DNA from: Pristiophorus japonicus
Lineage: Eukaryota
DNA length: 64,000 nt
Assembly (NCBI RefSeq): GCF_044704955.1
Contig: NC_091997.1
Coordinates: 34,596,001 to 34,660,000 of the forward strand
Direction: 5' to 3'
This document shows positions 19,119 to 57,225 of the stretch, piece by piece. Both the position numbers and the translations under genes were made by a program. The notes beneath the pieces are model-generated. The model saw nothing but the letters and a program-made list of their open reading frames with translations. It did no database searches and was not told where the DNA came from. Position 1 is the first letter of the stretch. Every line of letters starts with the position of its first letter.

Positions 19119-19189
19119 CAGTACTCAGGCATCGGTACCTCCCTCTCTTTGTACAGCTCCTCTAGTTGGGCGTTCTTCTTCCTTAGAAA
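19119..19189 (-). CDS. PNPO: PNPO coding exon 6 (71 bp)
   Basis: ccag|FLRKKNAQLEELYKEREVPMPEYW|gtgagt; phases match the neighbouring exons. Confidence 0.95.
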
Positions 19190-19289
19190 CTGGGAAGAGG
19201 ACAGCAATAAGTGGATGTCACACTGGGGGAACCGTAAAGCTTGGGCCAGACGCCGTCCGGAGTAACCGTGTCCAGTTCTGAGCCCCACC

Positions 19290-19765
19290 CCTCAGGGAGG
19301 ATATATTCACCAGAATGGTACTGGGGCTGAAAGGGTTAAATTCTGAAAGCAGATTACACAGAGTAGTTCCTCGAGTGTAGAAGATTAAGAGGGCGATCTA
19401 ATTGAAGTGTTTAAAATGATTAAAGAATTCGATAGGGTAGAGAGAGAAACTATTCCCTCTGATGGGGAGAGTCCAGAACAAGGGGGCATCACCTTAAAAT
19501 TAGAGCCAGGCCATTCAGGGTGATGTCAGGAAGCGTTTCTTCACACAAAGGGCAGTGGGAATCTGAAACTCTCCCCCCAAAAAAGTTGTTGAGGCTCGGG
19601 GGGTCAATTGAAAATTGCAAATCTGAGATTGATAGATTTTTGTTGGGCGAGGGTATTAAGGGTCACGGAACCAAGGCGGGTAGATGGAGTTAAGGTACAG
19701 ATCAGCCGTGATCTGATTGAATGGCGGAACAGGCTCGAAGAGCCGAATGGCCTCCTCCTGTTCCG
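19290..19765 (+). mobile_element. CR1 LINE 3' fragment
   Basis: GATCTAATTGAAGTGTTTAAAAT...CCGAATGGCCTCCTCCTGTTCC. Confidence 0.75.
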
Positions 19766-21123: not shown

Positions 21124-21262
21124 TGGGCTGTGGGAGGAGATTCAATGGGTGGGTGGGTGGAGTCAGTGATAGGGGAGTGTGTCCATGGGCTGTGGGAGGA
21201 GATTCAATGAGTGGGTGGGTGGAGTCAGTGATAGGGGAGAGTGTCCATGGGCTGTGGGAGGG
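21124..21262. repeat. 62-bp tandem duplication (~2.2 copies) in PNPO intron 5
   Basis: TGGGCTGTGGGAGGAGATTCAATG.GTGGGTGGGTGGAGTCAGTGATAGGGGAG.GTGTCCA repeated. Confidence 0.85.
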
Positions 21263-21346
21263 ATTGGTTGTATGGCCTTTACTAGCTCCATGCTTTCCTC
21301 TGTTACACCCACCGTAACCGAGGCCCATGCGGTTCTGTGCACACAC

Positions 21347-21475
21347 CTCTCTGTCCGGGATCACCGTGCTCTGACGGCTAATCGCGGCACCAATCTGGCT
21401 GCTCTTGGGCCGGGAATGGAAGTACTCCTCGGAATCCTTGTCTGGTAATCTTGCCACACGCCCTTCTATACGCAC
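21347..21475 (-). CDS. PNPO: PNPO coding exon 5 (129 bp)
   Basis: cttag|[43 protein letters not shown]|gtgtgt. Confidence 0.97.
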
Positions 21476-21569
21476 CTAAGGAGAGTGAGTATTCGTGGTC
21501 AGTCTCTCTGCCCAATTGACGTACCGGCAAGTGGAACAGGACCACAGAGGCAGCAACATGCTCAACATA

Positions 21570-22085
21570 TTATAAACAGGATACAGAGGCACTGGAGAGG
21601 GTGCAGAGAAGATTTACAAAGATGATACCAGGAATGCGAGGGTATACATATTAGGAAAGGGTGAACAGGCTAGGTCTCTTTCCCTTCAAAAGAGAAGGCT
21701 GAGGGATGACCTAATAGAGGTCTTTAAAATGCTGAAAGGTTTTGATAGAGTGGATACAGAGAGAATGTTTCCACTTGTGGGGAAGAGCAAAACTAGAGGC
21801 CATCAATATAAGATAGTCACCAAGCAATCCAATGGGGAATTCAGGAGAAACCTCTTTACCCAGAGAGTGGTGAGAATGTGGAACTTACTGCCACAGGGAG
21901 TGGTTGAGGCGAATAGTATCGATGGATTTAAGGAGAGGCTGGACAAGCATATGGGGGAGAAGGGAATAGAGGGTTATGCTGATAGAGTTAGATGAGGAAA
22001 GACGGGAGGAGGCTCGAGTGGAGCATAAATGTCGGCATGGACTGGTTGGGCCGAATGGCCTGTTTCTGTTCCGTATCCTGTGTAA
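21570..22085 (+). mobile_element. CR1 LINE 3' fragment
   Basis: ORF 21729-21995 TRGHQYKI...FTQRVVRMWN. Confidence 0.8.
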
Positions 22086-22503
22086 ATTAAAAAGAAAACA
22101 TCACACTGAGCATGCTCCGTGGGGTCCAGGATCCAGCTCGGGTGGGGGGAGCAGCGGATGGTTGACTGGATAGACATCAGGACCAGGATCCTTGGCTGAT
22201 TTTGTTCCCTGCTCTAACACAGTGGGGCGGTTGTAGCGCCTCCTACTGGTGTGAGCAGCTAGGGTGTCAGCATTGACTCGGTGGGCAGCACTCTCGCCTT
22301 TGTGTCAGAAGGTCGTGGGTTCAAGCCCCACTCCAGTACTTAGGTATATAATTGGTTCCGATGTGTTTTGGGGCGCCTTGAGGAAATGAAAGGCATTATA
22401 TCAATGCACGTTCATTCTGTCAGACACAATTAGTGAGAATTAAATGCGGGAGTGAAAGAAAGGTACATTTAAAAAATGAATAAATATGTAAATGAGAACG
22501 TAC

Positions 22504-22557
22504 TTGCCTATTAAGGGCCTCCCAGTAAAAGACGATTGCTGCAACTGGATTGGTTTC
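22504..22557 (-). CDS. PNPO: PNPO coding exon 4 (54 bp)
   Basis: ttctccag|ETNPVAAIVFYWEALNRQ|gtacgt. Confidence 0.96.
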
Positions 22558-23067
22558 CTGGAGAAAGACAGCAATATTAGCATGTTGTGCAGTCCTGGCC
22601 TAAATTAACTGTGATTGATGATGAATAAATGATGGTGAGGTGTGACTGAGTGTTATACTGAGGGCGAGGTTTAAGAAAGAAAGACTTGCAAAGCTTTTCA
22701 CGACCACCAGATGTCCCAAAGCGCTTCACAGCCAATGAAATGCCCCAGCAGGCCACTCAGTCACCACACGGACTGCAGCGGTTCAAGAAGGCGGCTCACC
22801 ACCACCTTCTCAAGAGGCAATTAGGGATGGGCAATAAATACCAGCCTTGCCAGCAACGCCCACATCCCAGGATGAATTTTAAAAAATGACTTTTTGAATT
22901 GTAGAACCTGTTGTAATATGGGAAATGCGTCAGCCAATCTGCGCACAGCAAGCTCCCACAAACAACAATGAGATAAATGTGTTATAACGAGGTGAGGTTT
23001 AGAGAGTTGAGAATGAGGCTTGCGATTTGCAATTGGTACACAGCTGACCAATTGAGCACCTACTCAC

Positions 23068-23167
23068 CAGCTCCTTGCCCTTCCTGCTCTCATAGTTTGT
23101 GTAGAATCTGAAGCCATCGGGCCCAAACCCTTTCAGAAGCAGCATTCGAGCAGACGGCCTTCCGTCC
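23068..23167 (-). CDS. PNPO: PNPO coding exon 3 (100 bp)
   Basis: ttttctag|(R)[33 protein letters not shown]|gtgagt, carrying the FMN-binding motifs. Confidence 0.97.
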
Positions 23168-23394
23168 CTAGAAAAGACACAGAAACAGAGAACCTGAAAT
23201 AACTAAAACCCGCTTTGAAATCCCATCGTGAATTCTATCCCTTCTCCAACTAATTACAACGTCGGTTTCTCAGTCAATCGAACAACACGTGGCTGAGGAT
23301 TCACACCATCGTGCTATAATTGTGTTTGGCTTTGCCCTATCATCAAACTCCCACTGATCAAACGGTAAACCCATCACGGCTCATTAGCGGTTAA

Positions 23395-23710
23395 TATGGT
23401 ACGGTAGCAGAGTGGTTACATTACTGGGCCAGTAATCCTGAGGCCTGCACTAGTGATCTGAGACAAGAGTTCAAATTCCACCATGGCAGCTGGGGAATTT
23501 AAATTCAGTTAATTAAATAAATCTGGAATAAAAAGCTGGAGTCAGTAATGGTGACTAATGTCCTTCAGGGAAGGAAATCTGCCGGCCTTATCTGGTCTGG
23601 GCCTATATGTGACTCCAGACCCACAATGTGGTTGACTCTTAACTGCCCTCAGAAATGGCGGCTCACCACCACCTTCTTGAGGGCAATTAAAGACAGGCAA
23701 TAAATAACTG
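23395..23710 (+). mobile_element. tRNA-headed SINE (family B)
   Basis: GGTAGCAGAGTGG...GAGTTCAAATT head and a LINE-derived GCTCACCACCACCTTCT tail. Confidence 0.65.
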
Positions 23711-23727
23711 AGTTGTTACAGAGTATT

Positions 23728-24243
23728 CACAGGCCATTCGGCCCCCACAGGTCCGTGCCGGGGTTTATGCTCCACACCAGCCCCCCTCCCACCCCTCTCC
23801 ATCTCACCCCATCACCATACCCTTCTATTCCTTTCTCCCCCATGTGTTTATCCAGCCTCCCCTTAAATCGATACTATTCGCCTCAACCCCTCCCTGTGGC
23901 AGCGAGTTCCACATTCTCACCACTCTCTGGGGAAAGAAGTTTCTCCTGAATTCCCCTTTGGATTTATCAGTGACTATCTTATATTGATGACCCCGAGTTC
24001 TGGTCTCCCCCACAACTGGAAACATCGTCTCTACGTCCACCCTATCGAACCTCTTCATAATTTTAAAGACCTGGATCAGGTCGCCCCTCAGCCTTCTCTG
24101 ATCTAGAGAAAAGAGCCCCAGCCGGTTCAGCCTTTCCTGGAATCATCCTTGTAAATCTTTTTCCCGCTCTCCTCTATATCCTTTTTTATAATATGGAGAC
24201 CAGAGCTGTGCACAGTACTCCAAGTGTGGTCTAACTAAGGTTC
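23728..24243 (-). mobile_element. CR1 LINE 3' fragment
   Basis: ORF 23825-24058 TRTRGHQYKI...FFPQRVVRMWN. Confidence 0.8.
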
Positions 24244-24734
24244 ACATAACCTCTATAGCACAGAAATAGGGCATTCGGGCCAGCTGGTCTATGCCTGTGT
24301 TTATGCTCCATACAACCTCCTCCCACCTTGCCCCACTGCCGTATCCCCCTACTTCCCCTGAGAGAATCAAAGGATATGGGGATCACACGGGAAAGTGGGG
24401 TTGAGGTAAAGATCGGCCATGGTCTTATTGAATGGCGGAGCAGGCTCAAAGGGCCGAATGGCCCATTCCTGCTCCTAATTCATGTTCTAATGTCCTCTGT
24501 TAGTAATGGACCCCATTATTGCACAGGTTTGACATTTCTCTTTGACCCATATTTTAATGTTAACCTCAATGAATTTAACTAGCGGACAAGGAGCTTTCTC
24601 ATCAACACTGTAACACCGTGCCACTATACCGTCTTTCGGTAGGGTGGGGGACCCATGCACTTTCCAACGTTAATTCTACTTCAGGCCTTTTGGTGAATGT
24701 TTGTCGACACTGCCTTAGTTCCAGCGAGGAGATT

Positions 24735-26470
24735 GGCGCAAGAGGTTACCTGGCACGGGTGATTACCTGCCGCTCATGGTTACTTGGCGCTCGTGGTTAC
24801 CTGTCGCGGGTGGTTACCTGCCGCTCATGGTTACCTGGCGCGGGAGGTTACCTGGCGCGGGAGGTTACCTGGCGTGGGAGGTTACCTGGCACGGGAGGTT
24901 ACCTGGCGTGGGAGATTACCTGGCGTGGGAGGTTACCTGGTTCGGGAGATTACCTGGCTCAGGAGGTTACCTGACTCGGGAGGTTACCTGGTGCGGGAGG
25001 TTACCTGGCGTGGGAGGTTACCTGGTGCGGGAGGTTACCTGGTGTGGGAGATTACCTGGTGCGGGTGGTTACCTGGCTCAGAAGGTTACCTGAATCGGGA
25101 GGTTACCTGGTGCGGGAGGTTACCTGGCGTGGGAGGTTACCTGGTGCTGGAGGTTACCTGGTGCGGGAGGTTACCTGGTGCAAGAGGTTACCTGGTGTGG
25201 GAGGTTACCTGGTGTGGGAGGTTACCTGGTGCAAGAGGTTACCTGGTGTGGGAGGTTACCTGGCGTGGGAGGTTACCTGGTGCGGGAGGTTATCTGGTGC
25301 GGGAGGTTACCTGGCGTGGGAGGTTACCTGGTGTGGGAGGTTACCTGGTGCTGGAGGTTACCTGGTGTGGGAGGTTACCTGGTGCTGGAGGTTACCTGGC
25401 TCGGGAGGTTACCTGGTGCGGGTGGTTACCTGGCTCGGGAGGTTACCTGGTGCGGGAGGTTACCTGGTGCTGGAGGTTACCTGGTGTGGGAGGTTACCTG
25501 GTGCTGGAGGTTACCTGGTGCTGGAGGTTACCTGGTGCTGGAGGTTACCTGGTGCTGGAGGTTACCTGGTGTGGGAGGTTACCTGGTGCGGGAGGTTACC
25601 TGGTGTGGGAGGTTACCTGGTGCTGGAGGTTACCTGGTGTGGGAGGTTACCTGGTGTGGGAGGTTACCTGGTGCGGGAGGTTACCTGGTGCTGGAGGTTA
25701 CCTGGCTCGGGAGGTTACCTGACTCGGGAGGTTATCTGGTGTGGGAGGTTACCTGGTGCGGGAGGTTACCTGGTGCTGGAGGTTACCTGGCTCGGGAGGT
25801 TACCTGGTGCGGGTGGTTACCTGGCTCGGGAGGTTACCTGACTCGGGAGGTTACCTGGTGTGGGAGGTTACCTGGTGCGGGAGGTTACCTGGTGCTGGAG
25901 GTTACCTGACTCGGGAGGTTACCTGGTGCGAGAGGTTACCTGGTGTGGGAGGTTACCTGGTGCTGGAGGTTACCTGGCTCGGGAGGTTACCTGGTGCGGA
26001 TGGTTACCTGGCTCGGGAGGTTACCTGACTCGGGAGGTTACCTGGTGTGGGAGGTTACCTGGTGCGGGAGGTTACCTGGTGCTGGAGGTTACCTGGTGTG
26101 GGAGGTTACCTGGTGCTGGAGGTTACCTGGTGCGAGAGGTTACCTGGTGCTGGAGGTTACCTGGTTCTGGAAGTTATCTGGTGCTGGAGGTTACATAGAA
26201 ACATAGAAAATAGATGCAGGAGTAGGCCATTCAGCACTTCGAGCCTGCACCACCATTCAATAAGATCGTGTCTGATCATTCCCTCAGTACCCCTTTCCTG
26301 CTTTCTCTCCATACCCCTTGATCCCTTTAGCTGTGAGGGCCATATCTAACTCCCTCTTAAATATATCCAATAATATATGGCGCTCGTGGTTACTTGCCGC
26401 TTGTGGTTACCTGGCGCTTGTGGTTACCTGGTGCTTGTGGTTACCTGGCGCGGGAGGTTACCTGGTGCTG
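24735..26470 (-). repeat. 17-bp minisatellite (~90 units) derived from the PNPO exon2/intron2 junction, interrupted by a CR1 tail at ~26195-26370
   Basis: Plus-strand unit GGAGGTTACCTGGTGC(T/G), i.e. minus-strand AGCACCAG|GTAACCTCC, identical to the real donor at 26462/26461. Confidence 0.95.
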
Positions 26471-26586
26471 GTGGCGAGGCACATGGCATTAGCCTCCCGG
26501 ATAGACGGGCATGTCGTGGCCGCTTCGAACCAGTCAGCAAACTGCTTCATGGGGTCCAGAGAAACCAGCTGATTCTCTTCAAAAGC
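26462..26586 (-). CDS. PNPO: PNPO coding exon 2 (125 bp)
   Basis: ttgccag|[41 protein letters not shown](R)|gtaacc. Confidence 0.97.
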
Positions 26587-26927
26587 CTGGCAACAAAGAC
26601 AGAGAGGAATATAAACACACAGACACACCGAGGCAGCAGCAGGTGTACTTTGCAAAGGTTTATTTGGTGCGGGTTGTGGGTGACCTTGGTGAGGTTACTC
26701 TTACTGGCAGTCCCTGAGAAGGTGGCGATGGGGCAGCTCCTATCTCCGGGCGTACGCGCATGTACATACTTGCAAACTCTGCAGAGACAAGTCATTTATC
26801 ACTATTGCCATGTAATTATATAGATTTTTCGACAGCACCTCACAAACCCGCGACCTCTAGAAGGACAAGGGCAGCAGGTGCCTGGGAACACCACCACCTC
26901 CACGTTCCCCTCCAAGACTTTGATATC

Positions 26928-27200
26928 ATAATGTATTTGCTTCATGGGTTCTTTGCTTAAGAATTCATCGCAACACATTGCTATTAAGAACTTGTTGGTT
27001 TATTAGCAAAGATTTAACAATCACACTACACATTACCAGTTCATTCACCAGGCTCACAACCACCTGCCTCATCGTGGATCCCCCGAACCCAACTGGCTGG
27101 GGTTTTATTGAGTTTTGTGAACATCGCATGATTGGCTAAGCCACTCACAACGCAACAGCGCTACACACCTGTGAGCATACTCACCGGTGCGTACATTACA
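26928..27200 (-). mobile_element. Solo LTR (same family as 15403-16112)
   Basis: TAATGTATTTGCTTCATGGG...GCGTACATTACA. Confidence 0.8.
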
Positions 27201-27249
27201 GACATACATCGGCCGTTCCTTCATTGTCGCTGGGCCAACATGCTGGAAG

Positions 27250-27672
27250 CATAGAAACATAGAAACATAGAAAATAGATGCAGGAGTAGGCCATTCGGCC
27301 CTTCGAGCCTGCACCGCCATTCGTTAAGATCATGGCTGATATTTCCTTCAGTACCCCTTTCCTGCTTTCTCTCCATACCGCTTGATCCCCTTAACCGTAA
27401 GGGCCATATCTAACTCCCTCTTGAATATATCCAATGAACTGGCATCAACAACTCTCTGGGGCAAGGAATTCCACAGGTTAACAACTCTCTGAGTGAAGAT
27501 GTTTCTCCTCATCTCAGTCCTAAACGGCCTGCCCCTTATCCTAAGACTGTGTCCCCTGGTTCTGGACTTCCCCAACATCAGGAACATTCTTCCCACATCT
27601 AGCCTGTCCAGTCCAGTCAGAATCTTATATGTTTCTATGAGATCCCCTCTCATCCTTCTAAACTCCAGTGAA
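27250..27672 (-). mobile_element. CR1 LINE 3' fragment
   Basis: ORF 27348-27653; (CATAGAAA)n tail. Confidence 0.85.
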
Positions 27673-27718
27673 TAAAGGCCCAGCCTCCCTTACGGCACTG
27701 TGGGAGCATCTTCACCAC

Positions 27719-28038
27719 TGGGGTTGCCATCTCGGGCTGGATGCATCCCTGGAGGTTTCATCCCATTACCGCCTGCTCCTAACCCCAATCTCCCGCCCCC
27801 GCTACAGTTCACCCAACATGTCCAACCTCGCCACACAAGACCTTCCCGCGTCAATTGGAAAGTGACAGACTGCCAGTAAAACAAATTATTTCCCAGCTTC
27901 AATATTTTTGTAGCTAATAAACAAAATTGTTCAGAGAAAGTTAAGAACAACACCATTTCTTTTTTGCTGGCAGTGTCCTGCAGATTAATCTTTAACTCCC
28001 AGAGACTCCGGGCCAGTCCTGGAGGGTTGGCGGCCCTG
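27719..28038. mobile_element. Non-autonomous hAT DNA transposon (MITE) with 8-bp TSD
   Basis: TSD TTCACCAC at 27711-27718 and 28039-28046; degenerate TIR TGGGGTTGCCA / TGGCGGCCCTG; splits a LINE tail. Confidence 0.75.
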
Positions 28039-28359
28039 TTCACCACACGGGCTGCAGCGGTTCAAGAGATGGCCCACCACCAAGTCCTCAAGGGCAACTG
28101 GAGGACGGGCAATAAATGCCGGCCTTGCCAGGACGTCTACGTCCCCAGAATGAATATTAACAAAAGACCAATTCGAATTTTTTTTAATGACACACCAGCT
28201 CCCCCTAATGGCTCGTTTAGGAAGTGCCTGGATAGGTGTTGTACTGAGCCATTCCAGACAGTAAGGAGCAAAGAAAGAACTTGCCTTTAATCCCTTTCGG
28301 GATGTCACAAAGTGCTTCATGTTAAGGGAACAAGAGCTAGTAAAGGAATACATTTTGTA

Positions 28360-28950
28360 TTAAAGAAAGACTTGCATTTATATAGCGCCTTTCACAAAGC
28401 ACTTTGCAGCCAATTAAATACTTTTGAAGTGCAGTCACTGTTGTAATGTGGGAAACACAGCAGCCAATTTGCACACAGCAAGCTCCCACAAACAGCAATG
28501 TGATAATGACCAGATAATCTGTTTTAGTGATGTTGATTGAGGGGTAAATATTTGGCCCCAGGGATAACTCCCCTGCTCTTTTTCGAAATTGTGCCATGGG
28601 ATCTTATACATCCACCCAAGAATGCAAACAGGACCTTAGTTTAACATCTTATCCGAAAGACGGCACCTCTGACAGTGCAGCACTCCCTCAGTACTACCCC
28701 TCTGACAGTGCAGCACTCCCTCAGTACTGCCCCTCCAACAGTGCAGCACTCCCTCAGTACTACCCCTCCCTCAGTACTGCCCCTCCAACAGTGCAGCACT
28801 CCCTCAGTACTGCCCCTCCAACAGTGCAGCACTCCCTCAGCACTGCACTGGGAGTGTCAGCCTAGATTTTGTGCTTAAGTTCCTGGAGTGGGACTTGAAC
28901 CCACAACCTTCTGACTTCAAGGCAAGGATGCTGCCCACTGAGCCGCGACT
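28360..28950 (-). mobile_element. Deu-domain SINE, near full length, ~5-6 internal 33-bp units
   Basis: tRNA-like head (GGCTCAGTGG, GGTTCAAGTCCC), Deu body and GCAAGTCTTTC tail. Confidence 0.85.
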
Positions 28951-29689
28951 TAAGGTTAAAGGCCTACAGCTCTAGCTGACAGCTCACTTTACATAGGTCA
29001 CAAACAGCCCGATCAAGAAGTCACGTTACATATTAATTACATTTAGATCTGGACTTTATCAATGTTTTTGCACAAATCGGAACACAGGAACAGGAGGAGG
29101 CCATTCAGCCCCTCAAGGCTGTTCCGACAGTCAGTGAGATCACAGCTGATCTGTTTCTTAAATCCATACGTCCACCTTGGTTCCATATTCTTTAATATTC
29201 TTACCCAACAAAAATCTATCAATCTCAGTTTTGACCTTTACAAATGGCCCTAAGCCACAATAAATATCGGGGCGATTAAGTTCCAGATTCCCACTGCCCT
29301 TTGTGTGAAGAAGTGCTTCCTGACATCACCCCTGAACGGCCTGCCTCTAATTTTAAGGTGACACCCCCTTGTTCTGGGTTGAAACATACTTGTCTGTAGG
29401 TGAGACAAGTTACTGCCTTCTCCACCTTGCTAACCCTAAACACCAGCTAGTTGTACTGGCCTTTGGGACCACCAATGTCAGATTAACAGTCTGGAACTTC
29501 TGGGTGAGAGCTGGTGTCAATTGCATCAAGATCGTGTGAAGCAATGTAGGTAGAATTATATTAAAATGGCAAAATTGTAACATGAGGTTAGGAGATTAAG
29601 CAGAAGGAAGGGATCTAGAAAGCTGACCTCAGCGACTGTAATGTGATCTTCTACAGCACTGAATCACCGGGCCAGTAACCGGTGGTTCT

Positions 29690-30860
29690 GTGTCAGCCGT
29701 GGCTCAGTGGGTTGCCTCTGAGTCAGAAAGTCGTGGGTTCAAGTCCCACTCCAGAGACTTGAGCAAAAAATCTAGGCTGAAGCCCTCAACGCCAATATAG
29801 AGGTGCTGTCTTTTGGATGAGACATTAAACTGAGGCACCTTGTTGCCTGCCTCAGCCCAAGTGCTGCTGAAACCCTCATCCATGCCTTTGTAACTTCCAG
29901 AGTATTCCAATGCTCTCCTGGCCAGTCTCCATAAACTTGAGTCCATCCAAAACTCTGCTGCCTGTATTCTAACACCCGCTGACCCATCACCCCTGCGCTC
30001 GCTGACCTACATTGGCTCCTGGTCAGGCAACGCCACAATTTAAAAATTCTCAACCTGGTTTTCAAATCCCTCCATGACCTCGCCCCTCCCTATCTTTGTA
30101 ATCTCCTCCAGCCCCACAATCCCCCGAGATGTCTGCGCTCCTCCAATTCTGGCCCCTTGCGCATCCCCCACTTTTTTTGCTCCATTGGTGGCCGTGCCTT
30201 CAGTTGCCTGGCCCCCAAGCTCTGGAACTCCTAAACCTGTCCACCTCTCTCTTCTCCTTCAAAACACTTGTTAAAACCTACCTCTTCGACCAAGCTTTTG
30301 GTCACCTGTCCTAATATCTCCTTCTGTGGCTCGATGTCAAATTCTGTCTGCTAACACTCCCGTGAAGTGCTTTGGGGTGTTTTAATACGTTAAAAAAAGA
30401 TTTACAAGAATGATTCCAGGGATGAGGGACTTCAGTTATGGGGATAGACTGGAGAAGCTGGGGCTGTTCTCCTTGGAGCAGAGAAGATTGGGAGGAGATT
30501 TGATCGAGGTGTTCAAAATCATGAGGGGTCTGGACAGAGTAGATACAGAGAGACTGTTCCCATTGGTGGAAGGGTCGAGAACCAGAGGACACAGATTTAA
30601 GGCAGAAGAACCAAAGGCGACATGAGGAAAAACTTTTTTACGCAGCGAGTGGTTAGGATCTGGAATGCGCTGCCTGAGAGGGTGGTGGAGGCAGACTCAA
30701 TCGTGGCTTTCAAAAGGGAATTGGATAAGTACCTGAAGGAAAAAAAATTGCAGGTCTACGGGGAAAGGGCGGGGGAGTGGGACTGGCTGAAGTGCTCTTG
30801 CAGAGAGCCGCCATGGGCTCGATGGGCTGAATGGCCTCCTCCTATGCTGTGACCGTTCTT
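29690..30860 (+). mobile_element. Stack of SINE head, L2 3' fragment and CR1 3' fragment
   Basis: SINE head 29690-29835; L2 ~29835-30390; CR1 ORFs 30410-30625 and 30622-30852. Confidence 0.7.
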
Positions 30861-31351
30861 ATATAAAGGCGCTATATAAATGCAAGTTGTAGTGAGGTGC
30901 GGAGGGATTTGTAAATGCGGGCAAGGAGTTTGAAATCGGTGCTTACTGTACAGCCAACAACAATAAGATACAAAGTCAAAGTCATTGCAAGGACTCGCTC
31001 TGTATTCATTCATACAGTTGCCTGGGCAGAGGCCTAGAGTGAGTCAGCACTGCCTTCCCCAAACACATAAAACCATTGCAAGCCTGGTTTTAATCGAAGG
31101 AATGAAGATAAAATCATATCTGTATCAATTTTACAAACGAAAATGGAGCCCGGGTCAGAATTGCCGCCGTTACACAAGGTGCGGGTAAAGGGGATTTCCA
31201 GGAGGAGGCGCTTTCTGTTATTGTTAAAAAGGTGAAACATGATCTAAAACGCAAATATTCCACGTCGTGAGCCCGGCCGATACATTTCACCGGATGGATA
31301 CATCGCGGCTCAGCCATGGCTACATCGGAGTTGTTACATTTTGCTACTCAC

Positions 31352-31543
31352 TTCCTGGTCGCATTTGTAGCTCTGCCTCATGGCGGCCACGTCGGCAGCA
31401 GGGCTGGAGCTGGAGCAGGAGGACATGCTGCAGGGTCTGCGACCTGAGCACGGTCTGTCCCCGCCGATCCACGGGTGCCCGGAACCTCTGATGAAACTGA
31501 CAGGGAAACTGATCCTTAGGGTGTCAGTTACACGCAACCACAT
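31352..31543 (-). CDS. PNPO: PNPO coding exon 1 (192 bp)
   Basis: GCCATG start; MWLRVTDT...DVAAMRQSYKCDQE|gtgagt resembles human MTCWLRGVT...DLGPMRKSYRGDRE. The joined CDS is 837 nt = 278 aa, open. Confidence 0.9.
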
Positions 31544-32965: not shown

Positions 32966-33714
32966 TCTATTTTTAAAAGGAAACTCCAGCTATGTCCACC
33001 CCCTCAACCACCTCAGTGTCTCCATCTCCTGAAGGTGTTGACATTTGTTGGGTCCAGTTCTACGGGGGGGTGGGGGGGGGGGAGCTGCCCTTGAGTGCCC
33101 CAGCCAAGTGGCCAACCTCTCTGTGTGAGCCGACACAATGAGTGTCATTAGGCTGTTCGACCACAGGAAGCATCACATATTTGCCTCCGAGGTATCTAAA
33201 GAACTATTAGGACAGGTGACCCAACGCCTGGCCAAAGCGGTAGGTTTTAAGGAGCATCATAAAAGTGGAGAGGTTTAGAGAGGGAAATCCAGAGACAAAA
33301 CAGGATACCTTAATCTCTCTTTCCACTTTTCAAACGCTGACAGACATAGAACCATTCGCCTATCATGGCTATGCTGGCTCTCTGAAAGCTGTCCAATTAC
33401 CCCACTCGCCCGCTCTTGCCCCACAGCCCTGCAATTTTTCCCTCCATGTATTTATCTAATTCCCTTTTGCTAGTTATAATTGAATCTGCTTCCACCGTCC
33501 TTTCAGATATAGGTTGTGTATTTTCTGTACCTAGTTATTTTCTTTGTACCAAAAACATAGAAACATGGAAAATAGGTGCAGGAGTAGGCCATTCGGCCCT
33601 TCGAGCCTGCACCACTATTCAATAAAATCTATTGATATAATAAATCTTGCATTTATCTAGCACCTGATCCCGTTAAAACCTTTGCAAAAGGTTGTGTGGG
33701 GGCGAGGGGTTTAA

Positions 33715-33940
33715 TTTTGATTGACAGCTAAGCGACCAATTAGAGGTGAGAAAGCATTCGCCTCTGCGCCAATGGGAGGTGGGCACCAAGTTCATTGACA
33801 AGAGCTTGAACCGCCGAGCTTCGGTCCTGATGATTGGCAGTTGTTGGAACCAATCAAAATGAAGATTGACAAACGGGCCACGCTCCCTTGCTTTGGTAGC
33901 CTGTGTCATTGCGGAGTGGGCGGGACTTCCTGCCTGGTGT
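33715..33940 (+). promoter_or_regulatory. CCAAT/TALE/GC-box promoter of the BEN-domain gene
   Basis: TGATTGACAG (33718-33727) + CCAAT (33736), CCAAT ~33769, TGATTGGCAG + CCAAT (33831-33854), GGGCGGG and ACTTCCT ~33918-33931, about 100 nt upstream of the ATG. Confidence 0.7.
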
Positions 33941-34027: not shown

Positions 34028-34302
34028 ATGGCTGACACTATGCTGACAGTCACTGAGCCCGTCTATACTGAGCTGGCAACACTGACAGAGGGACAGCAGC
34101 AGCAGCAGGGCTGTGGGGGAGAGGAGGAAGAGGATGATGATGAAGAGGAGGAGAAGAAGAAGGAGGAGGAGAAAGACTTCCCCAGGAGTGGAGAGGTCAG
34201 CAGGGAGCTCGGCTTCTCCAAACCCCCAGCCTGGTACCAGAACAGTGAGCGAGCTTTCACCTGCAGAACGCAGAGCTCTGGGTCTCAGCAAGATGCTCAC
34301 AG
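34028..34302 (+). CDS. BEN-domain protein, coding exon 1 (acidic, low complexity)
   Basis: ATG GCT..., MADTMLTVTEPVY...EEEEDDDEEEE...DAH, donor AG|gtaaga in phase 2 matching the next acceptor. The start could be the second ATG (34040). Confidence 0.7.
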
Positions 34303-34469
34303 GTAAGAGGAAAGACCAGCTGGGGTCACACCTGTCACTGGGTTTATAAACTGTAAATGAGGGAGAAGGTTTGATCAATGGCTAAATAATTTTGGAATCA
34401 GTGGATTCAGTTGTACAGAGCCTCGGTCAGACCCCATGCGCAGTAACTGCGTTCAGTCCTGGGCCCTGC

Positions 34470-34950
34470 CCCTCAGGGAGGGTATATCAGCCTCGGGGGG
34501 GGGGGGAAGCGCAGATTCACCAGAATGATACCGGGGCTAAAGGGGTTAAATACGAGGATAGGTTGCACAGACTGGGCTTGTATTCCCTCGAGTGTCGACG
34601 ATTGGGGCTGATCTAATCGAGGTGTTTAAGATGATTGATGGGGTAGATAGAGAGAAACTGTTTCCTCTGGTGGGGAAGTTCAGAACAAGGCGGCGTCACC
34701 TTAAAATTAGAGCCAGGCCATTCAGGGGTGATGTCAGGAAGCGCTTCTTCACACAAAGGGCAGTGGGAATCTGGAACTCTCTCCCCCAAAAAGCTGTGGA
34801 TGCTTTCAAGCCTGAGATCGATAGATTTTTGGGGTAAGGGTATCAAGGGATACAGAGCAAAGACAGGTAAATGGGTTTGAGGTACAGATCAACCGTGGTC
34901 TATGGCGGAACAGGCTGAGGGGGCTGAATGGCCTCCTCCTGTTCCTGTGC
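34470..34950 (+). mobile_element. CR1 LINE 3' fragment
   Basis: ORF 34592-34837 FFTQRAVGIWN. Confidence 0.75.
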
Positions 34951-35209
34951 GCTTGTGGATCAGGAGTGAAGTTCCGTGATGTTACAAGGAATGAGGGACC
35001 TTGTGAATCCAGTTATTTTTCTGGCCTATTTCCTTGCCTTGTCTCCTAAAGGGACTGGCTCTGGTTGCCGTACGGTTCCACAAGGTGACAGTAATCAAGC
35101 CAGATGCACCGGGGCCGATGTACTCGACCGCTGCCTGTTTTGAGATGAGCTGAGCCCAGGCCAGGGATCCACACTGCAGCGAGCTGGATCGAGAGGCAGG
35201 AAACTACAA

Positions 35210-35810
35210 TTGCTGTGGCTCAGTGGGCAGCACTCTCGCCTCTGAGTCAAAAGGTCGTGGGTTCAAGTCCCACTCCAGGGACTTGAGCACATATTCTATG
35301 CTGACACTCCCAGTGCAGTACTGAGGGAGTGCCGCACTGTCGGAGGGGCAATACTGAAGGAGCGCCGCACTGTCGGAGGGGCAGTACTGAGGGAGCGCCG
35401 CACTGTCGGAGGGGCAGTACTGAGGGAGCGCTGCACTGTCGGAGGGGCAGTACTGAGGGAGCGCTGCACTGTCGGAGGGGCAGCACTGAGGGAGTGCTGC
35501 ACTGTCGGAGGGGCAGTACTGAGGGAGAATCGCATTGTCGGAGGGGCAGTACTGAGGGAGTGCTGCACTGTCGGAGGGGCAGTACTGAGGGAGCATCGGA
35601 GGGGCTGTACTGAGGAAGCATTGGAGAGGCAGTACTGAGGGAGTGCCGCACTGTCAGAGGGACAGCACTGAGGGAGCGCCGCACTGTCGGAGAGACAGTA
35701 CTGAGGGAGCGCTGCACTGTCAGAGGGACAGTACTGAGGGAGCGCCGCACTGTCGGAGAGACAGTACTGAGGGAGCGCTGCACTGTCGGAGGGTCAGTAC
35801 TGAGGGAGCA
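35210..35810 (+). mobile_element. Deu SINE head with ~15-unit 33-bp array, 3' body missing
   Basis: GTGGCTCAGTGG...GGTTCAAGTCCC followed by the tandem array. Confidence 0.85.
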
Positions 35811-36324
35811 GCTACCCTTTACAATGAAGGGTGGGGGTGCTACTCGCTCCCATACCCCGCTTGACGTCCACCCAGTATTCCAAGCCAATCTCCACTCCCC
35901 ATGGGGGCCGGTCAGGAGTGGGGCTCAAACCCAATCCTTCTGATGGAGTCAGTGGTCGATCCAATACGGGGACAATATTTACGCCTGTTTCAGTTGGAGT
36001 AATGTATTAGGAGAGAAATTAGGAAACGCTTCTTCCCGCAAAAGGTGGTGGGAGTGTGGAACTCTCTCCCACAATGAGCAGCAGATGCCGGCTCAATTAA
36101 TCATTTTAAATCTGAGATCGATAGATTTTTGTTAGAATCGGGTATTCTTGGACATGGAGCCAAGGCGGGTGGATGGTGTTAGGATACAGATCGGCCGTGA
36201 TCTCATCGAATGCTCGAGGGGCTGGGTGGCCTGCTCATGTGTGTTTGCGGCTGAGTGGGTGAGTCCTGTCTCTGTGTTGGGCCCTGAGCTGCTGTCTAAG
36301 ACCCCCCTCCTTTACTGTGCTCAG

Positions 36325-36974
36325 GCAGGTGAACGGCCGCTCCGAGGACGCAGTGACCGGTCGCAGTTGGTCACCCTCCCGACCCACCGAGCATCGCAGG
36401 CCTGGGCCACAGCTGCAGGACACCGAGGAGGAGGACTACAAGCAGAGCAAGAAGCAGAGATGTTCGAGCTCCCTGCTGTCCGGCCATGGCTTCGACCCGG
36501 CCTCGGGCAGGAGGCCGCCACACCACGGAGACCCGTCCAGACCCAGCGCGCGGCGCCAACCCTCGCCCTTTCCCGTGGCGGCTTCGCCATGCCTGGCCCG
36601 CCTGGTGTCCCCGCAGCCCTGCTCGCCAGCCGGTATCCCGGCCAGGCCTCGTCGGAGGGACAGCTCCCCGGGTCCTCCTGCCTCTCCCGCGATGTCCGGC
36701 CTGCCTCCCGCCGTGGACAGCGGGCGCACCCTGAGGGTGATGGGACTGTACGCGGACCTGGTGCAGGAGCTCCAGGTTCAGCTGGCGGAGCTGCAGCGGC
36801 GAGGTCGGGTGGAGGCGGAGCTGGGCTCGGCGCGGGAGCGGCACATCGAGGCGCTGGAGGCGGAGAACCGGAGGCTGAAGGACCAGTTGCAGAAACTGGA
36901 GGAGGAGAACGACTTCCTGTCCAGCGGCAATGAGCGGGGCAACACCATGAGGGGTCTGCAAGCGGGAGCACTGG
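36325..36974 (+). CDS. BEN-domain protein, coding exon 2 (Pro/Ser/Arg-rich + coiled coil)
   Basis: gtgctcag|G CAG GTG...; GC-rich open frame ending LVQELQVQLAELQ...IEALEAENRRLKDQLQKLEEENDFL (heptads); donor G|gtaaat phase 1. Confidence 0.85.
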
Positions 36975-38169
36975 GTAAATTTTTTCACATTCTTAGACGC
37001 ATAGACATTCGAATTCTCGAATGAAACAGCACAGGAGAAGGCCACTCGGCCCATCGTGTCGACTCTGTGAAAGAGCGATCCAATTAGTCCCACTCCCCCT
37101 GCTCTGCTAATTTCTCCTTTTCAAGTATTTATCCAGGGCAGATGCAGCACGTGTTAAATACAGATTTAATCTGGTCTGCCTAACCTCAGAAGAGTGCCCC
37201 CTACAGGACGAGTTTAGTGGCATTCTGCCGTCCTGCTGCCTTTGCTTTGTGAGACTGGCAACTTAAAGCCAAATTCTGGGTAAGTTTGTGAAGTACATTC
37301 AGATCCAGCAACGAGACTGCCCCAAACTGCTATCTGGTAACCAGAACTGTACCATCCTGCACCAAACCCCACTCACACATCACCCCTGTGCTCGCTGACC
37401 TACACTGCCTCCCGTCTGGCGACGCCTTGATTTTAAACTTCTCATCTTTGTGTTCAAATCCCTTCATGGTCTTAACCCCTCCCTATCTCTGTAACCTCCT
37501 CCAGCCCTACAACCCTCCCAAGATCTCTGCGCTCCTCCAATTCTGGCCTCTTGTGCATCCCCGATTTTAATTGTTCCACCATTGGCGGCCGTGCCTGGGT
37601 CCTAAGCTCTGGAATTCCCTCATTAAAACTCTCTATCTACTTCTTTAAGGCCCTTCTTAAAACCCATCTCTAGGATCAAGCTGTTACTCGCCTTCTGTTC
37701 CTCCTTCTGTTAATCAGCCTGCATTTTTGACTGACTACACCTCCTGTTAATCATGCTGGGATGTTAAAGGCGCTATAGAGATGCAAGTTGCAACCGAGTG
37801 CTGTCTAACAGTGTCAGGGGTTTAATGGAAGGGTTCTGAGGTTGCAATGCTGCAGTACTGGACCTTTGCCAGCAGAGACCACTAGTGAGCTGGGTAGATT
37901 GTGCTTCCCCCCTGTGTCCAGGTGCAGTACTGCAGTGTTCACAACAGGTTCAATCACAGAGCTGTCATAGAAGGAGGCCATTCAGCCCATCGTGTCTGGG
38001 CCAGCTCTTTACTAGAGCAATCCAAAACTAATCCCACTGCGCTCTCCCCATAGTCCTGCATCTTCCTCTGCTTAAAAAAATTATCCAATTTCTTGTTTAT
38101 CAAATATCAAATAAAACTATTTGTATATAATATACATGCATTGCTTGCTATTTCTTTTTATTTATTTTA

Positions 38170-38988
38170 GGTCAGCAGTGGTTCAGTGAGCAGCACTCTT
38201 GCCTCTGAGTCCCATTCCAGAGATTTGAGCACAAAATCCAGTCTGACACTCCCACTGTCGGAGGGGTGGTAGTGCGGCGCTCCCTCAGTATCAGAGGGGC
38301 AGTACTGAGGGAGCGCTGCACTGTCGGAGGGGCAGTACTGAGGGAGCGCTGCACTGTCAGAGGGGCAGTACTGAGGGAGGGGCGGTACTGAGGGAGCGCT
38401 GCACTGTCGGAGGGGCAGTACTGAGGGAGCGCTGCACTATCAGAGGGGCAGTACTGAGGGAGCGCCACACTGTCGGAGGGGCAGTACTGAGGGAGCGCCG
38501 CACTGTCGGAGGGGCAGTACTGAGGGAGCGCCGCACTGTCGGAGGGGCAGTACTGAGGGAGCGCCGCACTATCAGAGGGGCAGTGCTGAGGGAGCGCAGT
38601 ACTGAGGGAGCGCCGCACTGTCTGAGGGGCAGTACTGGGGGAGCGTTGCACTGTTGGAGGTGCCGTCTTTTGGATGAGAAGTTAAACCGAGGCCCCGTCT
38701 GCCCTCCCAAGTGGATGTAAAAGATCACATGGCACTATTTTGAAGAAGAGCAGGGGAGTTCCCCCCCACCCCCCCAGTGTCCTGGCCGATATTTATTTCT
38801 CAATCAACTTCACTAAAAAAGAGATGATCTGATCATTATCACAATGCTGTTTGTGGGAGATTACTGTGCGTAAATTGAATGCTTCCCACATTACAACACT
38901 GACTACACTTCAAAAGGTACTTCATTGGCTGTAAAGCGCTTTGGGACGTCCGGAGGTTGTGAAAGATGTTATAGAAATGCAAGTCTTT
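38170..38988 (+). mobile_element. Deu SINE with ~11-unit 33-bp array
   Basis: Head, array, Deu body and tail ending about 25 nt before the exon-3 acceptor. Confidence 0.85.
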
Positions 38989-39011
38989 GTTTTCTGTCTT
39001 TATTTATCCAG

Positions 39012-39082
39012 ATGCATCCAAAAAGAACATAACATTCCTGAAGGACCTTGTTGAATTGCTCGAATCGAATATGGACGTCCAG
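39012..39082 (+). CDS. BEN-domain protein, coding exon 3 (71 bp)
   Basis: ttatccag|(D)ASKKNITFLKDLVELLESNMDVQ|gtcagt; phases 1->0 fit. Confidence 0.8.
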
Positions 39083-39329
39083 GTCAGTGTTGATGCTTCT
39101 AAACTGAGTCTGAGGAACAGGAGGCAGCCATTCAGCCCCTCGAGCCTATTCCACCATTCAGTGAGATCACGGCTGATCTGTATCTTAACTCCATCCACCC
39201 GCCCTGGTTCTATACCCTTGCCGAGCAAAAATCTCTTAATCTCAGATTAAGAATGATGAATTGAGCCCCCTGGGGTATTTAGGACCACCCACAGCCATCT
39301 CTTTACTCGTGCCTTGTTTGTTGTCTCAG

Positions 39330-39587
39330 GACCCGCCGTCTGACAGTAAGTTGCCGCTGGTTCCATTGAGTCTGCCGTCCTTTCTGGTTGCCGAGGAGAC
39401 TCTTGGCCCCGTCGAGCTGTACAGGGAGGTCAGTGACTGCCCCGGGGTCATCGCTACATGGAACAGGCTGGAGGAGAGTGCAGCCAGCCCCCTGCGGTAT
39501 CCAGACATCCGGGGCCTGGCCTTCTGGGACACTGCCATCAAAGACACCCTGCCGGATGGCTCACTGGTGTGGGCCTGCCCTGTCGAG
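39330..39587 (+). CDS. BEN-domain protein, coding exon 4 (258 bp)
   Basis: ttgtctcag|DPPSDSKLP...GSLVWACPVE|gtaggg; phase 0->0. Confidence 0.75.
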
Positions 39588-39694
39588 GTAGGGTCAGTTC
39601 CACCCCCCTTTAATGTGAAAGAAAACGATGGGTAAAGGCCACCCCTGATCACGATATCTCTTATTTGCTCCAAAACTCTGCTGCCTGTATCCTA

Positions 39695-40662
39695 AAGAAA
39701 GAAAGACTTACATTTATACAGCACCTTTCACGACCCCCCGATGTCCCAAAGCACATTTCAGCCAATGAAGTACTTTTGGAGTATAGTCACTGCTGTAATG
39801 TAGGAAACGCGGCAGCCAATTTGCACACAGAAAGCTCCCACAAACAGCAATGTGATAATGATCAGATTATCTGTTTTAGTTATGTTGGTTGCGGGATAAA
39901 TATTGGCCAGGACACCGGGGATAACTCCCCTTCTCTTCTTCAAAATAGAGCCATAAGATCTTTTGCGTCCACCTGAGAGGGCAGACGGGGCCTCGGTTTA
40001 ACGTTCCATCCGAAAGACGACCCCTCCGACAGTGCGGCGCTCCCTCAGTACAGCCCCTCCGACAGTGCGGCGCTCCATCAGTACTGCCCCTCCGACCGTG
40101 CGGCACTCCCTCAGTACGGCCCCTCTGACAGTGTAGCGCTCCCTCAGTACTGCCCCTCTGACAGTGTAGCGCTCCCTCAGTACTGCCCCTCTGACAGTGT
40201 AGTGCTCCCTCAGTACTGCCCCTCCGACAGTGCTCGCTGACCTACATTGGCTCCTGGTCCGGCAACACCTCGATTTCAAAATTCTCATCCTTGTTTTCAA
40301 CTTCCTGCACGGCCTCACTCCTCCCTATCTCTATAACCTCCTCCAGCCCTACAACCCCCCCTGAGATCTCTGTGCTCCTCCAGTTCTGACCTCTTGAGCA
40401 TCCCGATTTTCATCGCTCCACCATCGATGGCCGTGCCTTCAGCTGCCTGGGCCCTAAGCTCTGGAATTCCCTCCCTAAACCTCTCTACCTCTGTTTAAGA
40501 CGCTCCTTAAAATTTACCTCTGACCAAACTTTTGGCCACCTGTCCTAATATCTCTCAAGCGGCTCGGTGTCAGATTGTGTCGGATTACGCTCCTGTGAAG
40601 CGCCTTGGGATGTTTTACTACATTGAAGGTGCTATATTAATGCACATCGTTGTTGTTGTTGT
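39695..40662. mobile_element. Minus-strand Deu SINE with ~6-unit array (39695-40232) fused to a plus-strand L2 3' fragment (40228-40662)
   Basis: Family motifs; the L2 (GTT)n tail abuts the exon-5 acceptor. Confidence 0.8.
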
Positions 40663-40669
40663 TAACCAG

Positions 40670-40916
40670 GCAAATGGGAGACCGAAGGCAGAGCTGATAC
40701 CTGGCTCAGGTGTGTACCTCACCAACCGGGAGGTGGACGAACTCTCGCAGGTCTCCCGAGATAAGCCCAAGCTGATGACTCGGAAGCTCCTGGGGTATTT
40801 CTTTTCGCATCAGACATTGGCGCGGTCGTCAGCCCGGGGTGAGCGCATCGCCCACAACAAGACCACCTTGGAGAAGCCCATCTGCTTACCTACTGCTGTC
40901 ACAGACACCATCAAAG
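40670..40916 (+). CDS. BEN-domain protein, coding exon 5 (BEN domain, N-terminal part)
   Basis: ELIPGSGVYLT...KPKLMTRKLLGYFFSHQTLARSSARG...LPTAVTDTIK parallels the BEN domain of NACC1/2 (ELVTGTNVYIT...[22 protein letters not shown]); donor G|gtgagg. Confidence 0.9.
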
Positions 40917-41320
40917 GTGAGGGGGGTTGGGGGGTGAGGGTTGGGGGTGAGGGGTGGGGTTGGGGGGGTGAGGGTTGGTGGGGTGAGGGGTGGGGATGAG
41001 AGTTAGGGGGGGTGAGGGTTGGGGTTGGGGGTTGGGTTTGGGGTGAGGGTTGAGGATGAGGGGGGGTGGGGGTTGTGGTTGAGGGTGAGAATTGGGGTGG
41101 GGGTGAGGGTTGGGGTGGGGGGTGAGGGTTGCGATTGGATGGTGAGTGTTGGGGGGATGAGGATTGGGGGTGGGGGTTGGGGGGTGAGGGGTTGGAGGTG
41201 AGGGTTGGGCATGAGAGGTGAGGGGTTGGGGTGAGGGGTGGGGGTTGGTGGGGTGAGGGGTTGGGGTGTGAGGGATTGGAGGTGTGTGGGTGGGGGTTGG
41301 GGTTGGGGTGGGGTTGAGGA
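40917..41320 (+). repeat. G-rich degenerate (GGGTGA/GGGTTG)n tract starting at the exon-5 donor
   Basis: About 17 GTGAG motifs among G-runs; strong G-quadruplex potential. Confidence 0.85.
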
Positions 41321-42327
41321 GGAGCAAGGCTGCAGTTTCACCGCTCTCCTGCTGGTGGAGCTGCTGAGAACACCATCCAACAGCTCCCCCGACGGATACA
41401 TGTGGTACTGCAGCAAGGTGTCAAACCCATTATTATTCAAAAGTATAAATTCTTTGTACCACCACATACAGACCGATCACCAGCAACCCAGGGGAGGCCA
41501 TATTGACTGTCTGGGGCATTAATTCAGGAGAGAACATTTGTTGACCCTGGCCCACCCCCTGACCATGACCTGCCCCCTGACCCTGGCCCACCCCCGACCC
41601 TAACCTGCCCCATGAACCTGACACGACCCCTGGGTTCTTGGTTCCATTCATGTTTACTGCAACAGTTCCTGCCACTCTCATGGTCTTCTCTGATGTCACC
41701 CGATGATGTTATCAGACGATGCCATGACATAATCCCTGAAACAATCCATGGGGAGGGGGGCAGGGAAAAGAGCGAAACTGATGGAAACAGAATGTGAATC
41801 TGCACCGTCTGCACTTTAAGCTCTCTGAGCATTGCTAACAGTGATCAGAGGCCGGTTGTTGTGGGATTTCAGTTTGTTGTCAGTAATTTTAGTGACCACA
41901 GATTCCAGATGAAGACCCTTGTCCGGTCACTCTGGGGCTGGGTCACCATGCACCATCTTCAATTTAATGTCAATCTGCTCTTTCTGATCTTTGGTCAGTA
42001 AAATGAGCTTTTCTTTTAGAAAATATTTACAACAATTGGGTGTTACAAAATCACAATTAGTGTCAATGCCACTGGGTTGGAGAGAGGAGAAATCAGCCAG
42101 GGTTCCTGCTCCTGATCACTGCCCAGGGTCCCCAGAGGTGAAGTGTGTGTGCGTGCACAGGATCAGGTCTGGTTATGATGCCCCCATTGTTGAATAACCC
42201 ATTGACACGGTGAATGGGGGAGGGGCTGGTGCCTGCAGAGGCCTCAGGACACAAGATAGGGAAAGGTGGAGATGAATTCTGAGTTTTGAACAATAAATGG
42301 TTTGTTTCTCTTTTAACTCTGTTGCAG

Positions 42328-42437
42328 ATTACGTGACGTTTGTGTGTGGGCGGGGATGTGACTTTAACGCTGTGATTAACAGCAAGTGTGCCACTTCCAG
42401 GAGGACAGTGCGGAAACTGACAGAGAAGATGAAGTGA
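42328..42437 (+). CDS. BEN-domain protein, coding exon 6 (BEN domain, C-terminal helix)
   Basis: ctgttgcag|(D)YVTFVCGRGCDFNAVINSKCATSRRTVRKLTEKMK*, resembling the BEN terminal helix (N..I...C...RR). The joined CDS is 1611 nt = 536 aa. Confidence 0.9.
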
Positions 42438-42454
42438 AACAAATCGGCTGTTGC

Positions 42455-55790: not shown

Positions 55791-55841
55791 TCGCTAAGGT
55801 TTCTAAGTTCTCCCCCTTTCTTTCCCTGACTGTTGCTGCAG

Positions 55842-57165: not shown

Positions 57166-57225
57166 GTGAGAAGCCATTTGCCAAAAAGCTTCATTCCATC
57201 AAATTTTATGCAGCGAGTTGTTGTA

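Follow-up and report, generated by a model that had tools for sequence, protein, structure and literature searches.

An apparently unnamed BEN-solo gene family of jawed vertebrates, represented beside PNPO in Pristiophorus japonicus

Gene model, splicing and neighbourhood

We analysed a stretch of 64,000 nucleotides (nt) of the shark Pristiophorus japonicus (NC_091997.1, positions 34,596,001 to 34,660,000 of the forward strand; hereafter the window, in whose numbering all positions are given), with the focus on a gene located between PNPO and an SP2-like gene, which encodes a coiled coil followed by a C-terminal BEN domain. The coding sequence is composed of six exons (1611 nt, 536 amino acids and a stop codon), separated by introns that are all of the GT-AG type and lie in phases 2, 1, 0, 0 and 1. 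A model proposed earlier from the letters alone (the sequence-only reading) proved right to the base: the frame is open, and the introns have the borders and phases that it had claimed. We consider it probable that the gene is intact and expressed and that it represents a separate, unnamed BEN-solo family, which is ancestral to jawed vertebrates and was apparently lost in placentals and ray-finned fish. The exons are as follows:

34028..34302, plus strand: coding exon 1; ATG and acidic tract, weakly conserved beyond sharks
36325..36974, plus strand: coding exon 2; basic patch (possible nuclear localisation signal), disordered Pro/Ser/Arg region and coiled coil
39012..39082, plus strand: coding exon 3; conserved amphipathic 'I.FL..L...LE' helix (amino acids 312-332), common to invertebrate relatives
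39330..39587, plus strand: coding exon 4; linker and conserved segment preceding the BEN domain
40670..40916, plus strand: coding exon 5; BEN strands and helices 1-4, including the minor-groove loop
42328..42437, plus strand: coding exon 6; BEN recognition helix 5 and stop (contigs run on to at least 42486)

Three alternative joins of exons 1 and 2 were tried, and all three were closed by stops.

Splicing was checked by comparing contigs of three public runs (X1-X3, all of one study) with window positions 38700-42750. One contig of X1 (record 1) is contiguous across introns 3, 4 and 5, one of X2 (record 6) across introns 4 and 5, and one of X3 (record 14) across intron 5, so that spliced contigs join the exons at each of these three introns. 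The offsets of 2-3 bases at the junctions in the contig alignments correspond to the slide permitted by AG at both ends. For introns 1 and 2, the backing is homology to shark orthologs. The X2 contig carries 1063 more bases upstream, approximately the length of exons 1-3 plus 70, and these would match exons 1-3. Both exonic variants found in the runs are synonymous. The X1 contig reaches 85 bases 5' of exon 3 into intron 2 (38927-39011), a stretch that may reflect RNA not yet spliced, the use of another acceptor or simply the end of the contig.

Exon 5 is 100% identical to a UniRef protein of P. japonicus named 'uncharacterized' (P0001, 595 amino acids). This entry follows the same gene model, with 59 additional N-terminal residues derived in part from one further exon:

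33138..33239, plus strand: upstream exon of the P0001 model only; overlaps a repeat with four other copies in the window

The database start was rejected as repeat-derived and unconserved. Since the extension is present in none of the 10 other aligned orthologs, the start at 34028 is the better one, and the upstream exon probably lies outside the conserved gene. A different isoform is annotated in Heterodontus (isoform X2, P0002), which runs into intron 5 and stops, with loss of the recognition helix (compare window positions from 40917 onward); if real, it could be dominant negative. At intron 5, the contigs of runs X1-X3 showed the spliced form and not such a read-through.

The surroundings of the gene contain the following features:

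18166..31387, minus strand: PNPO, span of the exon motifs found; its start lies slightly beyond 31387
33736..33923, no strand assigned: promoter-like cluster; CCAAT/ATTGG boxes at 33736, 33769, 33833 and 33850, GC box at 33918
55830..57308, plus strand: large exon of the SP2-like gene, 3' of the BEN gene; Sp box and Gln-rich region

PNPO is thus arranged head-to-head with the BEN gene, at a distance of about 2.5 kb, and the SP2-like gene follows in the orientation of the latter. The placement between PNPO and SP2 given in the sequence-only reading stands on the PNPO side, where the Pfam search returned PNPOx_N (E-value 4.6e-5), together with short motifs at 31387, 23106, 22530, 21400 and 18190 that we take to be PNPO exons. 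The same search gave no match for the downstream neighbour, and SP2 is the name that we assume for it. Human SP2 and PNPO are presumably co-oriented, in which case the shark arrangement would differ, and rearrangement of the locus may be linked to gene loss. The promoter-like cluster sits 100-300 nt 5' of the ATG of the BEN gene and, judging from its boxes, would function as the promoter; four CCAAT/ATTGG boxes occur in 0.3% of 220-nt segments, and the window has three further places with four.

BEN domain, predicted structure and DNA-contact residues

Exon 5 alone scored at the edge of the Pfam BEN profile (PF10523; E-value 8.4e-5, 23.1 bits against a cut-off of 23.2), the full P0001 protein exceeded the cut-off with 29.6 bits, and all 11 aligned orthologs matched the profile at E <= 0.01. 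P0001 contains one BEN stretch and otherwise only sub-threshold coiled-coil matches. The BEN assignment and the BEN-solo architecture (a single BEN and no other recognised domain), both suggested from the letters alone, are therefore borne out. The coiled coil comprises 68 residues (amino acids ~227-294, about 36728-36931).

The mean identity of the shark protein to those of 43 bony vertebrates is 70% in the BEN domain, 57% just before it, 49% in the coiled coil, 50% in the helix that follows the coiled coil and 7-24% elsewhere; amino acids 1-120 show a mean identity of 61% to other sharks and of 7% to the 43 bony vertebrates. BEN domain identity amounts to 93% between coelacanth and opossum and to 72% between shark and coelacanth. 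A count of the basic patch (49/50) was not relied on, as the pattern is permissive and had no control.

A first structure model, built from 11 sequences, was poor (mean predicted local distance difference test score, pLDDT, 48.8; no Foldseek match at E <= 0.001) and was replaced by an AlphaFold2 model based on 58 sequences. In the latter, disordered segments separate a long helix, a short helix and a confidently predicted BEN domain, and pLDDT exceeds 90 over most of the BEN domain and the coiled coil. The modelled BEN domain was compared with solved structures, giving Z-scores of 13.0 for Insensitive, 12.2 for Bsg25A, 12.1 for NACC1, 11.3 for BANP and 8.5-9.0 for BEND6; NACC1 was the top Foldseek match, and an Atlas comparison gave a template-modelling score of 0.74 to NACC1. 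Atlas feature matches for the BEN region were all below 0.9. As modelled, the fold is type I, with N-terminal strands, five helices and a long helix 5.

The coiled-coil homodimer model obtained a score of 0.32, exactly at the mark used (best control, 0.00; pLDDT 76). Separate runs agree in at least 93% of contacts, and the predicted interface is a parallel, in-register coil. The mark is reached by 21 of 30 solved homodimers and by none of 23 monomers (microbial proteins), and by 7 of 16 animal homodimers. The modelled homodimer passes marginally, which supports it short of demonstration.

In the PDB, the closest BEN domains by sequence are those of NACC1 and NACC2 (8yzs, 7bv9), with seven contact residues shared or conservatively changed. 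The DNA contacts of NACC1 are R400, R401, G419-I420, R421, S423, R429, D462, T465, N466, R468, R469 and R472 (PMC11472053), and were mapped by sequence alignment onto 108 vertebrate rows of the family. The equivalents of R400 (R456), R401 (K/R457), G419 (G475) and R472 (K/R529) are present in 108/108 rows, and those of R421 (R477), R468 (R525) and R469 (R526) in 106/108 each, the exceptions being two falcon models. In contrast, D462 is replaced by Ser and T465 by Gly, Ala or Ser in all 108 rows, and of the helix-5 base readers D462, T465 and R469 only the last, G-reading one is kept (= R526). All 9 invertebrate relatives compared retain the paired helix-5 arginines as well.

In BANP, the corresponding helix carries S313, K314, R316, T317 and R320, of which R316 is CpG-reading and methyl-sensitive (PMC11472053, PMC10206803). 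Matched by residue spacing rather than by an alignment tool, these correspond to S519, K520, A522, T523 and R526, and the position of R316 is occupied by Gly, Ala or Ser in 108/108 vertebrate rows. Helix 5 of the family mixes a NACC1-type G-reading arginine (R469 = R526) with a BANP-like Ser-Lys pair. Because Gly or Ala replaces both T465 of NACC1 and R316 of BANP, the motif recognised should be unlike CATG and CGCG. The NACC motif CATG is in any case not expected given the changes at D462, T465, S423 and R429, and reading through a BANP-type methyl-sensitive arginine is unlikely.

Three falcon copies (P0112, P0114 and P0121, from three Falco species) differ from all this: their paired helix-5 arginines are changed to tryptophans and the loop arginine to histidine, and they carry small deletions, which suggests that the gene is undergoing decay in falcons.

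Range, relatives and origin of the family

Searching with the BEN region of the coelacanth yielded 101 proteins, 97 of them in named rows. The 101 include seven from sharks, the coelacanth, six from marsupials (five species) and four unnamed, and the other 83 are from amphibians, turtles, crocodilians, tuatara, lizards and birds. No row carries a genuine gene name, the label 'cyclin-dependent kinase 12-like' of one caecilian model being an error. A hidden Markov model (HMM) search of all 1.84 billion 50% representatives gave 79 matches, among them nine full-length vertebrate clusters, all from shark or lobe-finned lineages. The best reading of this distribution is that the gene was already present in the common ancestor of jawed vertebrates and has since been strongly constrained in sharks, coelacanth, amphibians, reptiles, birds and marsupials.

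In the word-limited search of annotated proteomes with the coelacanth query, placentals, monotremes, ray-finned fish, snakes, lungfish, rays and cyclostomes were represented in none of the 97 named rows. The absence from placentals is fairly strong, since their many proteomes would form 90% clusters of their own; in the smaller groups an absence is weak, because the word search is lossy (12 against 101 proteins with two different queries). The gene thus appears to have been lost in placentals and, separately, in ray-finned fish. The sequence-only reading had offered two accounts, loss in mammals or restriction to one lineage. The former, for mammals as a whole, is contradicted by the BEN gene of five marsupial species, and the latter by orthologs from sharks to marsupials and by invertebrate relatives.

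On comparison with NACC, BANP, BEND2, BEND3 and BEND6, the protein could not be assigned to a named BEN protein, in agreement with the sequence-only reading: it has no BTB domain and a single BEN, and its identities to NACC, BANP and BEND6 are low. In a profile search of the PDB, NACC1 was the only BEN domain found by sequence (E 3e-11), and the BANP, BEND3 and BEND6 chains deposited there gave no match at E <= 10. NACC1 and NACC2 are BTB-BEN proteins, whereas BTB is absent from 11/11 members of the family, which have a coiled coil instead, and BEN identity to NACC (27-35%) is lower than to scallop and Lingula proteins (38-49%; scallop 45-49%). The Drosophila BEN-solo factors Insensitive and Bsg25A (PDB 4ix7, 4x0g) are the closest folds, yet share 20% identity and gave no sequence match; the Drosophila factors are reported to lack direct orthologs in vertebrates (PMC8887127). 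BANP (PDB 8yzt, 7yuk; 17-20% identity) likewise combines a coiled coil with a single BEN, but its BEN is central and followed by a C-terminal domain, whereas the shark protein ends with the BEN. BANP oligomerises through its coiled coil, and oligomerisation can change its site selection (PMC11472053). BEND6 shows 11-14% identity in structural alignments (Z 8.5-9.0) and no profile match. BEND2 and BEND3 have multiple BEN domains, against one BEN stretch in P0001. The architecture of BEND5 and BEND6, a coiled coil with one C-terminal BEN, is that of the shark protein.

In a BEN-only tree computed without the BEN region of PRDM11, a branch supported at 99/99 has the family on one side, and NACC is set off at 100/100; when PRDM11-BEN is added, only 39% of bootstrap trees keep the vertebrate family on one side of a branch. 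The approximately unbiased (AU) test rejects neither a grouping with NACC (p 0.15) nor one with the invertebrate proteins (p 0.22). The trees thus set the family apart from NACC and are compatible with more than one sister group and deep placement. It is improbable, in our estimation, that the gene corresponds, as a highly diverged ortholog or as a close paralog, to one of the named human BEN genes, either as a BTB-less offshoot of NACC or as BEND4, BEND5, BEND6 or BEND7. Such a kinship is consistent with the PDB match to NACC1, the AU test and the top feature clusters of a snail relative (P0143; 'BEND5-like' 0.95, 'BEND6' 0.94). It is countered by the missing BTB, the identities and the unmatched PDB chains; by the HMM search, where none of the 79 representative matches appeared to resemble BEND4, BEND5 or BEND7; and by the 93% identity between coelacanth and opossum, from which the change into any human BEN would need a huge jump in rate.

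The next relatives are unnamed coiled-coil and BEN proteins of scallop, Lingula, sea cucumber, vent snail, freshwater mussel and Mya, which share the loop and helix-5 motifs with the vertebrate family. The helix after the coiled coil is also found in the three invertebrate relatives compared for it. One locus from a metagenome (L001) has a phase-0 intron exactly at the position of shark intron 4, and L001, a second locus (L002) and the shark gene all have a phase-1 intron before the conserved helix, offset by two residues; shark intron 5 has no counterpart in L001 or L002. From these shared introns, motifs and helix, it is the whole gene, and not the domain alone, that appears to be homologous between shark and invertebrates. 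The invertebrate relatives differ in that they are often multi-copy, have a longer insert before helix 5 and in some cases (P0143, L002) bear an extra N-terminal segment. This segment (L002:1509-1781 and the N-terminus of P0143) is beta-rich and is missing from the vertebrate family; it presumably resembles the one in BEND5.

These relatives raise the question of origin. One possibility is domestication: the BEN gene would descend from an accessory gene carried by a DNA transposon, and one copy of that gene would have become fixed next to PNPO in some early jawed vertebrate. Coiled-coil and BEN genes would then travel in invertebrate mobile elements, and the protein might still bind element-derived sites. 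This account departs from our preferred explanation on origin only and is otherwise compatible with it. It fits the finding that three copies (L001, L004, L005), 83-94% identical and two of them frameshifted, occur in one metagenome assembly, and that in L004 some 290 nt separate the end of the BEN fragment from CACTA-type Transposase_21 and DUF4218 frames that follow on the same strand. Further points in its favour are a gene model of Mya arenaria (P0210) in which piggyBac transposase fragments are joined to the same type of BEN, near-identical copies in Gigantopelta (two loci) and in one cluster of seven ENA contigs, and a related BEN region fused to PRDM11 in sharks and rays. However, a DDE transposase lies beside the BEN region in only one of five loci, and the transposon neighbours, which are fragments too, are of different kinds (CACTA and piggyBac). 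The sequence common to L001 and L004 is limited to 380 nt, and the genes in L001 and L002 are not flanked by any convincing terminal inverted repeats. Moreover, the invertebrate genes are multi-exon, the intron shared by L001 and the shark also fits vertical descent, no relatives were found in viral contigs or phage records, and the shark gene itself has no element features. On balance we regard a transposon origin as rather doubtful, though it deserves to be kept in view.

The L004 locus is a mosaic on one strand, consisting of an OB-fold-like exon (706-978, recognised by eye, with no Pfam match), the BEN fragment (1638-2017) and a 5'-truncated CACTA-type transposase (2174-3523). As regards PRDM11, five models annotated as prdm11 in bamboo shark and rays (P0151, P0154 and P0196-P0198) combine PR/SET with a C-terminal BEN, and P0154 also has a coiled-coil-like stretch and a similar 'FL' helix; no related report of PRDM11 with a BEN domain was found in the literature searched.

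Proposed function, its weighing and the window context

We propose that the protein would enter the nucleus via its basic patch and dimerise through the 68-residue parallel coiled coil. The dimer would bring a pair of type I BEN domains to the DNA, each inserting helix 5 into the major groove and its loop arginine into the minor groove, as in the type I binding mode described in PMC8887127. The conserved helix after the coiled coil is a candidate element for binding a partner or for higher oligomers. Among BEN-solo factors, repression is the commoner output, and the protein would regulate transcription in a sequence-specific way, most likely as a repressor or chromatin-boundary factor. Repression is not assured, because BANP activates transcription (PMC11472053).

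Alternatively, the BEN domain might serve mainly as a protein-binding cofactor module instead of reading DNA sequence. At two of the NACC1 base-reader positions the family indeed has small residues (Ser for D462, Gly/Ala for T465), a role of BEND6 in binding CBF1 and antagonising Notch targets has been reported (PMC11472053), and BEN domains that do not bind DNA are distinguished in PMC8887127. The near invariance of the backbone, minor-groove and G-reading arginines, the pair retained in the invertebrate relatives and the fact that the closest structures are DNA-bound type I BEN domains make this unlikely. A chance join of fragments, or a pseudogene, could be suspected from the repeat-filled introns and the weakly conserved N-terminal half; it is refuted by the spliced contigs and the family matches, with which the open frame, the synonymous variants and the orthologs across jawed vertebrates agree, and we assign it virtually no weight.

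Besides the activation by BANP, several points weigh against an expressed, DNA-binding, ancestral regulator that was later lost. The run type of X1-X3 is not on record, and all three come from a single study. Four NACC1 contacts (S423, R429, D462 and T465) are not kept. The dimer score is no higher than the mark, coiled coils resemble many solved ones, and the mark is reached by one of seven eukaryotic homodimers that have no older solved relative. The separation from BEND4, BEND5 and BEND7 is provisional. The absences rest on annotated proteomes, not genomes, and on a word-limited search, in which shark exon 5 retrieved 12 of the 101 relatives found by the coelacanth query.

The uncharacterised status suggested in the sequence-only reading is supported in the sources covered, where all orthologs are unnamed. 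Six locus identifiers of the family are named nowhere in the literature searched; there, 'BEN domain' combined with 'coelacanth' gave nothing, and with 'marsupial' only one paper, which is unrelated by title and abstract. Judged by titles and the beginnings of abstracts, nothing deals with this family; Abhiman 2008, Pan 2023 and the supplement of PMC3296468 lie outside the search and may list the gene, and the supplementary gene lists of the last might include the chicken ortholog. The RefSeq models were already known as uncharacterised loci, and what is new is the definition of the family, its range, its apparent losses and the invertebrate link.

Catalogues of BEN proteins, of which there are nine in human (PMC11472053), were built on human and fly, and a family missing from placentals would be invisible to them. 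The genes that disappeared when placentals arose, for which Kuraku and Kuratani counted 141 loss events (PMC3296468), would gain a candidate DNA-binding regulator with this family; losses of this type are common, and the regulatory role proposed here is inferred. The recognition helix of the family, with NACC-like and BANP-like positions, is a natural variant with which base choice and methylation sensing can be tested, and Xenopus laevis (LOC495228, XB5788060.S) and opossum allow direct tests of the family. A bolder and speculative version, which we hold only tentatively, is that this is a tenth vertebrate BEN family, with a recognition helix not described before, which arose by domestication of a mobile coiled-coil and BEN gene of invertebrate type in early jawed vertebrates, reads a motif unlike CATG or CGCG without the methyl-sensing arginine of BANP, has stayed near-frozen for more than 400 million years and was dropped independently by placentals, by ray-finned fish and currently by falcons. 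If true, placentals have shed a regulatory programme that marsupials still have.

Elsewhere in the window, decayed retroelement frames of the long interspersed nuclear element (LINE) and Gypsy types were recognised by eye in the list of open reading frames (949-4162 and 5006-9205). A long minisatellite is located at 24579-26349, and tandem arrays of one short repeat unit occur at 35330-35810, 38270-38640, 40005-40235, 44626-45552 and 52440-53540; together, the minisatellite and these arrays account for most of the long spurious open reading frames in the window.

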